The notes under the pieces are model-generated. The model did no database searches, was not told where the DNA came from, and was given only the letters and a program-made list of their open reading frames with translations. This document shows, piece by piece, positions 16,092-16,523 of a stretch of 64,000 bases of DNA. Positions within the stretch are counted from its first letter, which is position 1. Each line of letters opens with the position of its first letter. Source of the DNA: Amphiscolops sp. MND2022 (taxonomy: Eukaryota); the NCBI GenBank assembly GCA_964187785.1, contig OZ076409.1, forward strand, positions 1,984,001-2,048,000, written 5' to 3'. Both the position numbers and the translations under genes were made by a program.

Positions 16092-16523
16092 CAACAAGTC
16101 TTTCTAAGCCACGGCTCTGGCGAGACTCTGCGGACATCAAATGCAAACTTAGCATTTTGCGTCTCGGCAGATGGAAAAATGACAACCACATTTGCGAGAA
16201 AGTTATGTGAACAGAAAAAAGAATTCCAAAATTTCGTAAACCAATCAAAACCCTTCGTTGGATCGGTTCTACCCTTTTGGGATAACGAAGCCAATCGCTT
16301 CATCTATGGGCTAGTTGCAAAAAAAAGGTGTTACGAAAAAATTAGACCCGAAGATTTTCGTAGTTGCATTGAAAATCTGTTCGGACACGCACAATTAAAC
16401 AATATATCTGCAATTTCAGTAGCCAAAATTGAAGATGGCTTAGACAACATCAGCTGGAAAGAAGCGTTAGACATCATTCGTAACACGTTCGATTATGGAC
16501 ATATTAAAGTTGAGATTGTGTCA
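16092..16523 (+). other. TARG1/OARD1-like macrodomain embedded in Pol
   Basis: LAFCVSADGKM / RFIYGLVAKKR / AISVAKIEDGLDNISWKE...IKVEIV align by eye with OARD1 LAHCISEDCRM / RYIYYLITKKR / DLSMPRIGCGLDRLQWEN...IKITVY. Confidence 0.85.

Follow-up and report, generated by a model that had tools for sequence, protein, structure and literature searches.

Positions 16092..16523 on the plus strand of the window, by which we mean the whole 64,000-nucleotide stretch of Amphiscolops sp. MND2022 DNA that was analysed, encode a TARG1/OARD1-type macrodomain within the pol gene of an env-carrying Ty3/Gypsy LTR retrotransposon of ∼18.5 kb. The domain has a macro fold, lies between the protease and the reverse transcriptase (RT), is limited to one clade of related Pols, carries pocket changes that are fixed in its family and has evolved at an accelerated rate in this lineage. 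Based on these sequence comparisons, we favour with moderate confidence the reading that an ADP-ribose eraser was captured by these elements, that it is likely active in the sister families and that it has become a probably dead but folded spacer in the family of the window.

The identity of the domain was confirmed by sequence and structure comparison. The segment is in the pol frame, downstream of the protease motif (∼15339). A phmmer search against PDB sequences returned human TARG1/C6orf130 in five of six matches (E 4.1-5.5e-10), colinear across residues 18-142, and no other significant match was found in these sequences. The Pfam Macro family matched weakly (E 0.006, under the cut-off), and routine annotation therefore overlooks the domain; the precomputed family annotation of a full-length Pol relative contained no Macro family. 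An AlphaFold2 model built from a 70-row macrodomain alignment reached a pLDDT of 94.2, and its best structural match was TARG1 (4j5r; E 6.8e-12, TM 0.87), with DarG next. Because the alignment included canonical macrodomains, this fold result is not independent of it, while the phmmer match to TARG1 is. A second model, of a 413-aa ORF, gave Z-scores of 19.3 for TARG1, 18.7 for DarG and 15.5 for Poa1p, and the latter two were rejected as the closest subfamily since TARG1 scored higher. In the ESM Atlas the nearest cluster carries the name OARD1-like. The initial annotation had proposed an OARD1-type macrodomain in frame with pol between protease and RT, and both comparisons bear this out; its concern that the structure might not be a macro fold does not apply to a model that matches TARG1 so closely.

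The element that carries the domain has LTRs with TG..CA ends, a target-site duplication and a primer-binding-site-like sequence, with gag followed by PR-RT-RH-IN, as in Ty3/Gypsy elements, and a fusion glycoprotein gene lies between pol and the 3' LTR (Table 1). The fusion protein belongs to the Monjiviricetes_fusion family, which we take to be gB-like. The order of domains in Pol is protease, dUTPase-like fold, macrodomain, RT, RNase H and integrase. The dUTPase-like fold, which was absent from the initial annotation, is missed by Pfam and also occurs in relatives without the macrodomain. The protease gives a clearer Pfam match in the relative P0175. The LTR identity points to a young insertion. 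The window copy is broken: pol is interrupted by stops at 15444, 16686 and 18093, and the reading frame shifts within gag, within integrase and within env.

Table 1. Features of the macrodomain-bearing retrotransposon in the window.
Feature	Position	Strand	Remarks
5' LTR	11401..13786	+	TG...CA; 4-bp target-site duplication just before
Primer-binding-site-like sequence	13790..13806	+	Starts TGG, three bases past LTR
gag	13805..15220	+	Retrotrans_gag E 4.6e-5; CCHC-like motif; frameshifted at ∼14880 in window copy
Slippery heptamer	15210..15216	+	gag/pol overlap, -1 relation; -1 frameshifting inferred
Aspartic protease	15333..15647	+	DTG motif; weak Pfam match; stop at 15444
dUTPase-like beta fold	15687..15971	+	Z 9.1 EBV dUTPase, Z 8.9 EIAV dUTPase; rmsd 3.7-4.2
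TARG1/OARD1-type macrodomain	16092..16523	+	144 aa, stop-free
Reverse transcriptase (YLDD) and RNase H	16953..18083	+	Pfam
Integrase (H2C2, core, C-terminal part)	19038..20794	+	Spans frameshift near 19214-19325
env-like gene	25740..27478	+	Pfam Monjiviricetes_fusion, E 4e-12 and 6e-23; two frames
Accessory ORF with TRAF/MATH domain	28038..28796	+	E 1e-19; directly upstream of 3' LTR
3' LTR, first part	28820..30224	+	1392/1405 aligned bases match 5' LTR
3' LTR remainder and matching 4-bp target-site duplication	59059..59848	-	Displaced by inversion

Several further features were observed in and around the element. The accessory ORF is open over 252 aa, with a coiled-coil-like N-terminal half followed by the TRAF/MATH domain, and is a candidate captured immune-signalling decoy. 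The interval of ∼5 kb between pol and env (20800-25700) contains orphan ORFs, including one at 24705-25190, and another lies after env at 27479-28006. A ten-unit array of 50-62-nt repeats was located at 23931-24493, and the LTR contains a 196-bp repeat. The region 30225-59848 is inverted (or misassembled) over 29.6 kb. Its breakpoints fall within the 3' LTR of the element and within RT of another Gypsy element; of this second element, gag, PR and the start of RT are found on the minus strand at ∼30.2-34.9 kb and RNase H-integrase on the plus strand from ∼59.85 kb. Judged by eye from translations, 42487-51504 holds an LTR element of BEL/Pao-like appearance, with 389-bp repeats, and 8147-8773 holds a fragment of a Tc1-like transposase.

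The distribution of the domain among related Pols was analyzed using the region around the macrodomain as query, which returned 29 long Pols. In an RT/RNase H tree of 30 rows, composed solely of relatives, one clade (support 98/96) held all 10 macro-bearing rows together with one ORF that starts after the domain. The 13 Pols outside this clade that cover the interval are without a macrodomain and have 32-142 aa at this place, compared with 219-238 aa; 6 further ORFs in the tree begin too late for macrodomain presence to be scored. From the tree and the interval lengths we infer a single capture of a TARG1-type segment of ∼165 aa in the ancestor of the clade. The domains of the clade share a 3-residue insertion in the first loop with respect to TARG1. 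Elements of this type can do without the domain, as the closer macro-less outgroups show. On a separate branch of the clade, P0177 and P0178 lost loop 3 including its Asp (D125), and P0182 is likewise degenerate; from the parallel loss of D125 and loop 3, decay can be seen to be nothing unusual in the macro clade.

The pocket residues were compared using the numbering of human TARG1 (after PMC6397177). Alignment to TARG1 showed that the equivalents of K84 and D125, both catalytic in TARG1, are retained in the window domain, while both Gly loops are altered (GAGIA to TTTFA and GCG to EDG). On these points the initial annotation was accurate, but its list of residues omitted the changed T83, H32 and F22 and the kept G123. 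It had also raised the question of intact Gly loops in the family consensus, and here the answer is negative, the altered loops being fixed in all examined copies of the window's family. The G43 equivalent is altered in all 11 copies, those of H32 and T83 in 10/10 and those of G121 and C122 in 9/9, and the F22 equivalent is altered as well. The K84 equivalent is kept in 10/10 and the D125 equivalent in 9/9 copies, and together with those of G123, C33, S35 and D37 each is kept in 8-10 of 9-10 copies. A set of 106 canonical domains from outside the family, selected for having the loop 2/loop 3 pattern, served for comparison. At position 43, 103 of them have Gly and 2 have Ser, and neither Thr nor Lys occurs; at the H32 equivalent, 99 have His. 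In human TARG1 the substitutions G43E, I44E and G123E each abolish ADP-ribose binding and catalysis (PMC5928194). As a point against a dead pocket, this mutant evidence at position 43 concerns Gly-to-Glu and not Gly-to-Thr.

The TARG1 catalytic pattern TKx(30,35)Px[IL]GxGxD (from PMC6397177) was present in none of the 9 full domains of the window's family and in 16 of 24 in other families, counting fetched proteins that show the full domain and a matching flank (6 partial ones were left out). The 8 misses outside the family include the degenerate P0177, P0178 and P0182, and also P0175 and P0176, which are one position off. The nearest cluster has 168 members, and among the 15 members listed, 3 have an open Pol frame of 1821 aa that includes the domain. 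The altered loops are present in these three frames too and, as they are shared by all examined copies, they are a family trait and not the result of decay after insertion. The fear that the domain would be missing from intact relatives is likewise removed by its presence in open full-length Pol frames. The three stops and the frameshifts of the window copy and its Pfam match under the cut-off might suggest that the loops had merely decayed in a single dead copy or that the similarity to TARG1 had arisen by chance; the former was rejected because open frames share the changes, the latter because of the E-value of 4e-10 to TARG1, and taken together the two have a negligible probability.

The closest sister of the window's family, P0173, has a canonical domain, and the two were compared region by region. 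Identity was 88% in RT, 92% in the connection/RNase H, 59% in the dUTPase-like fold and 51% in the linker between RNase H and integrase; the macrodomain was lowest at 40%. In a relative rate comparison with P0175 as outgroup, 32 macrodomain sites were altered in the window's family alone and 5 in P0173 alone (p 7e-6), a roughly six-fold faster change, and with three other outgroups the excess was also found (p 4e-5 to 5e-4). No similar excess was seen in the other Pol regions, and RT tilted slightly the opposite way (p 0.03-0.06). The branch lengths for the window's family and P0173, respectively, were 0.98 and 0.17 in the macrodomain, 0.40 and 0.34 in the dUTPase-like fold, 0.05 and 0.07 in RT/RNase H and 0.49 and 0.49 in the linker. 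The stem of P0177/P0178 showed the same burst (0.94-0.98). Of the highly conserved macrodomain columns, 16/29 are common to the family and its sister, compared with 26/29 between canonical sisters, and conserved columns were spared weakly and not significantly (30/62 vs 26/76, p 0.12). The length of the domain is unchanged, without indels, and 39 of 46 hydrophobic columns are still hydrophobic. Shared variants within the family were found at 14/144 macrodomain, 18/200 linker, 6/145 dUTPase-like and 0/167 RT sites, with an uneven coverage of ∼10 copies for the macrodomain and ∼5 for RT; the excess of the macrodomain over the protease and dUTPase-like regions was not significant (p 0.09 and 0.07). 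No relative was found in the metagenome contigs that were scanned.

By these rates the macrodomain of the window's family appears to evolve as if freed from catalytic constraint, and its family may have lost the need for, or the benefit of, ADP-ribose removal. Even while drifting, the domain would be held to its exact length and its hydrophobic core, since Pol processing would suffer from a segment before RT that misfolds or breaks the frame. Counting against a dead enzyme, the equivalents of K84, D125, G123, C33, S35 and D37 have survived about one substitution per site, a retention beyond what might be expected of a fully relaxed pocket, and the macrodomain branch of 0.98, twice that of the linker, is as compatible with positive selection as with relaxation. 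The same retained residues, together with the doubled branch, the lack of indels and the confident predicted fold, would be expected of a retuned enzyme, whose Lys/Asp dyad acts on another ADP-ribose conjugate or whose surface has changed to evade a host inhibitor, the fast branch being adaptive. We regard such retuning as unlikely, as the G43 equivalent is a residue absent from the 106 canonical domains, the H32, T83, G121 and F22 equivalents are altered, variation within the family is still running at the linker rate and the parallel lineage lost D125 and the entire loop 3.

Less likely still is a repurposed non-catalytic module that binds RNA (the genome or the tRNA primer) or a host protein; a repurposed binding module was the alternative offered by the initial annotation. 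RNA binding by human TARG1 is independent of the pocket (PMC5928194), and the exact length and fold of the domain have been retained. However, a basic equivalent was found at one of the three residues (K50, R86 and R126) named as the basic patch for TARG1 RNA binding (bioRxiv 10.64898/2026.03.31.715305), the net charge is approximately neutral (18 K/R, 17 D/E) and no newly conserved surface was detected in the domain. A folded spacer that has probably lost its activity is the reading that we retain for the window's family.

The wider occurrence of TARG1-type domains was investigated by a search of 1.84 billion representatives, which gave 324 matches at E <= 0.001, and by a profile search for longer proteins, which gave 27 additional rows. 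Among the best 150 of the 324 matches, which were scanned, and the 27 rows, the domain was located after the protease in P0111 and in P0165 (Daktulosphaira vitifoliae; protease context judged by eye), between RNase H and integrase in P0061, P0085, P0215 and P0226, and after the integrase in P0172, P0204, P0220 and P0221. In P0208 (Athalia rosae) it lies upstream of the integrase. Most of the Pol-borne domains at the three sites have the canonical pattern, and those at the two sites other than that after the protease belong to elements unrelated to that of the window. Three distinct sites require several captures or moves. In a macrodomain tree of 50 chosen rows, made with a quick method, poorly resolved and unable to count captures, the Pol-borne domains were scattered, with 13 label changes compared with 23.2 when shuffled, and the starred branches force just 2 changes per group; P0182 fell outside its own clade on a very long branch. 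Independent captures of macrodomains by Pols are suggested by these sequences.

TARG1-like folds were also found in arthropod RNA viruses. The polyprotein of Diabrotica undecimpunctata virus 1 (P0071) has a TARG1-type macrodomain at its N-terminus (residues 38-166), and this domain groups with the macro-clade domains in the quick tree (SH-aLRT 95). In P0172, residues 1166-1513, past the integrase, contain a macrodomain and then a Tpt1/KptA RNA 2'-phosphotransferase, so that a writer-like and an eraser-like domain occur together. In P0204 a single frame holds the integrase, a chromodomain and a TARG1-type macrodomain with the canonical pattern, and it also gives a weak rhabdovirus-G-like fusion match. 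A second, degenerate macro-like domain is located downstream of the first and just before the integrase in P0061 (residues 660-787; 27.8 bits) and P0208 (residues ∼445-515; 8.6 bits), with reversed controls at or below 0, and was not seen in P0215 or P0226. At the corresponding place in insect errantiviruses a 'pseudo RNase H' with changed strand order has been described (PMC13524379), which may be a decayed macrodomain.

In the proposed mechanism, Gag-Pol would be made by -1 frameshifting and the domain carried into the particle, either free or joined to RT after protease cleavage, as the general biology of retroelements suggests. By analogy with human TARG1, the canonical sisters would use the lysyl-intermediate chemistry of Lys84 and Asp125 and may remove ADP-ribose that the host has added to Pol proteins or to the bases of RNA or cDNA. 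In RNA, guanine N1 and uracil N3 are freed of ADP-ribose by human TARG1, the one enzyme among the tested hydrolases that removes base-linked ADP-ribose from RNA (bioRxiv 10.64898/2026.03.31.715305); such base-linked ADP-ribose would obstruct reverse transcription and is a candidate target. We infer a counter-defence role for the canonical domains. The protective eraser of the initial annotation fits the pattern-keeping sister families better than the window's family, with its fixed changes in the loops and its fast evolution.

The canonical sisters might instead do housekeeping, clearing ADP-ribose by-products or end caps from Tpt1-type processing of tRNA or RNA ends, or aiding integration at PARP-marked breaks. 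Fish endogenous retroviruses (ERVs) contain ORFs for CNPase or for a macrodomain (Basta 2009, cited in PMC4977317), and in P0172 the Tpt1/KptA domain lies beside the macrodomain. The subfamily is TARG1 (Z 19.3) and not Poa1p (Z 15.5), however, and the recurrence of TARG1-like folds among many RNA viruses of arthropods, in which no tRNA-primed reverse transcription takes place (e.g., P0071), fits conflict better; we regard the housekeeping role as unlikely, and for the sisters counter-defence remains our preferred role.

The macrodomains of RNA viruses are well established as enzymes of counter-defence. ADP-ribosylation, to our knowledge, has not been established as a defence against LTR retrotransposons. 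The recurrent capture of the class of base-linked ADP-ribose erasers into a polyprotein that accompanies RT points to such a defence. As a tentative and rather doubtful extension, invertebrates may use ADP-ribosylation of retroelement RNA, cDNA or Pol as a widespread defence, with Gypsy elements repeatedly capturing TARG1-type erasers that decay when the pressure shifts and the 'pseudo-RNase H' as an old fossil of this process. If true, the macro clade shows a capture-decay cycle under way, in which active sisters coexist with dead ones. The clade forms a natural matched set, in which canonical domains and degenerate ones are carried by Pols with 80-88% identity in RT, and the copy in the window is most likely the dead variant, which weakens a direct claim for it.

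Macro ORFs in fish ERVs are already on record (PMC4977317, citing Basta et al. 2009). TARG1-type domains in Gypsy Pol were not reported in the openly accessible literature that was searched, as judged from listings and abstracts, and none is described in the available text of bioRxiv 2021.11.30.470311 and PMC4245714. In PMC13524379 the term 'macro' is absent from the main text and appears in the supplement rows only within species names. The known system closest to the window domain is human TARG1/OARD1/C6orf130 (PDB 4j5q and 4j5r), with which it shares the fold (TM 0.87), the colinear sequence and the K84, D125 and G123 equivalents; unlike TARG1, it is part of a retroelement Pol, does not fit the TARG1 pattern and has altered F22, H32, G43, T83, G121 and C122 equivalents. 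DarG (PDB 5m31 and 5m3i) and Poa1p (6lfq) share their branch of the macrodomain fold with the window domain (Z of 18.7 and 15.5), but have 9-15% identity and gave no phmmer match in the PDB, and the window domain is without a cognate toxin. The macrodomains of positive-strand RNA viruses (alphavirus nsP3 and coronavirus Mac1) are likewise ADP-ribose erasers embedded in a polyprotein, whereas they have MacroD-type chemistry, 7-14% identity and lower structural scores. These viral domains counter antiviral PARPs. The epsilon-like fish ERVs are also reverse-transcribing elements that captured a macrodomain, but they are Retroviridae with the domain in additional ORFs (PMC4977317), whereas the window element is Ty3/Gypsy and has it inside Pol. 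Finally, the window element resembles Ty3/gypsy elements with an env gene, which in a wide sense are errantiviruses (PMC13524379), in its LTRs, gag, PR-RT-RH-IN pol and fusion-glycoprotein env, and adds to this architecture a macrodomain, a dUTPase-like fold and a MATH ORF.
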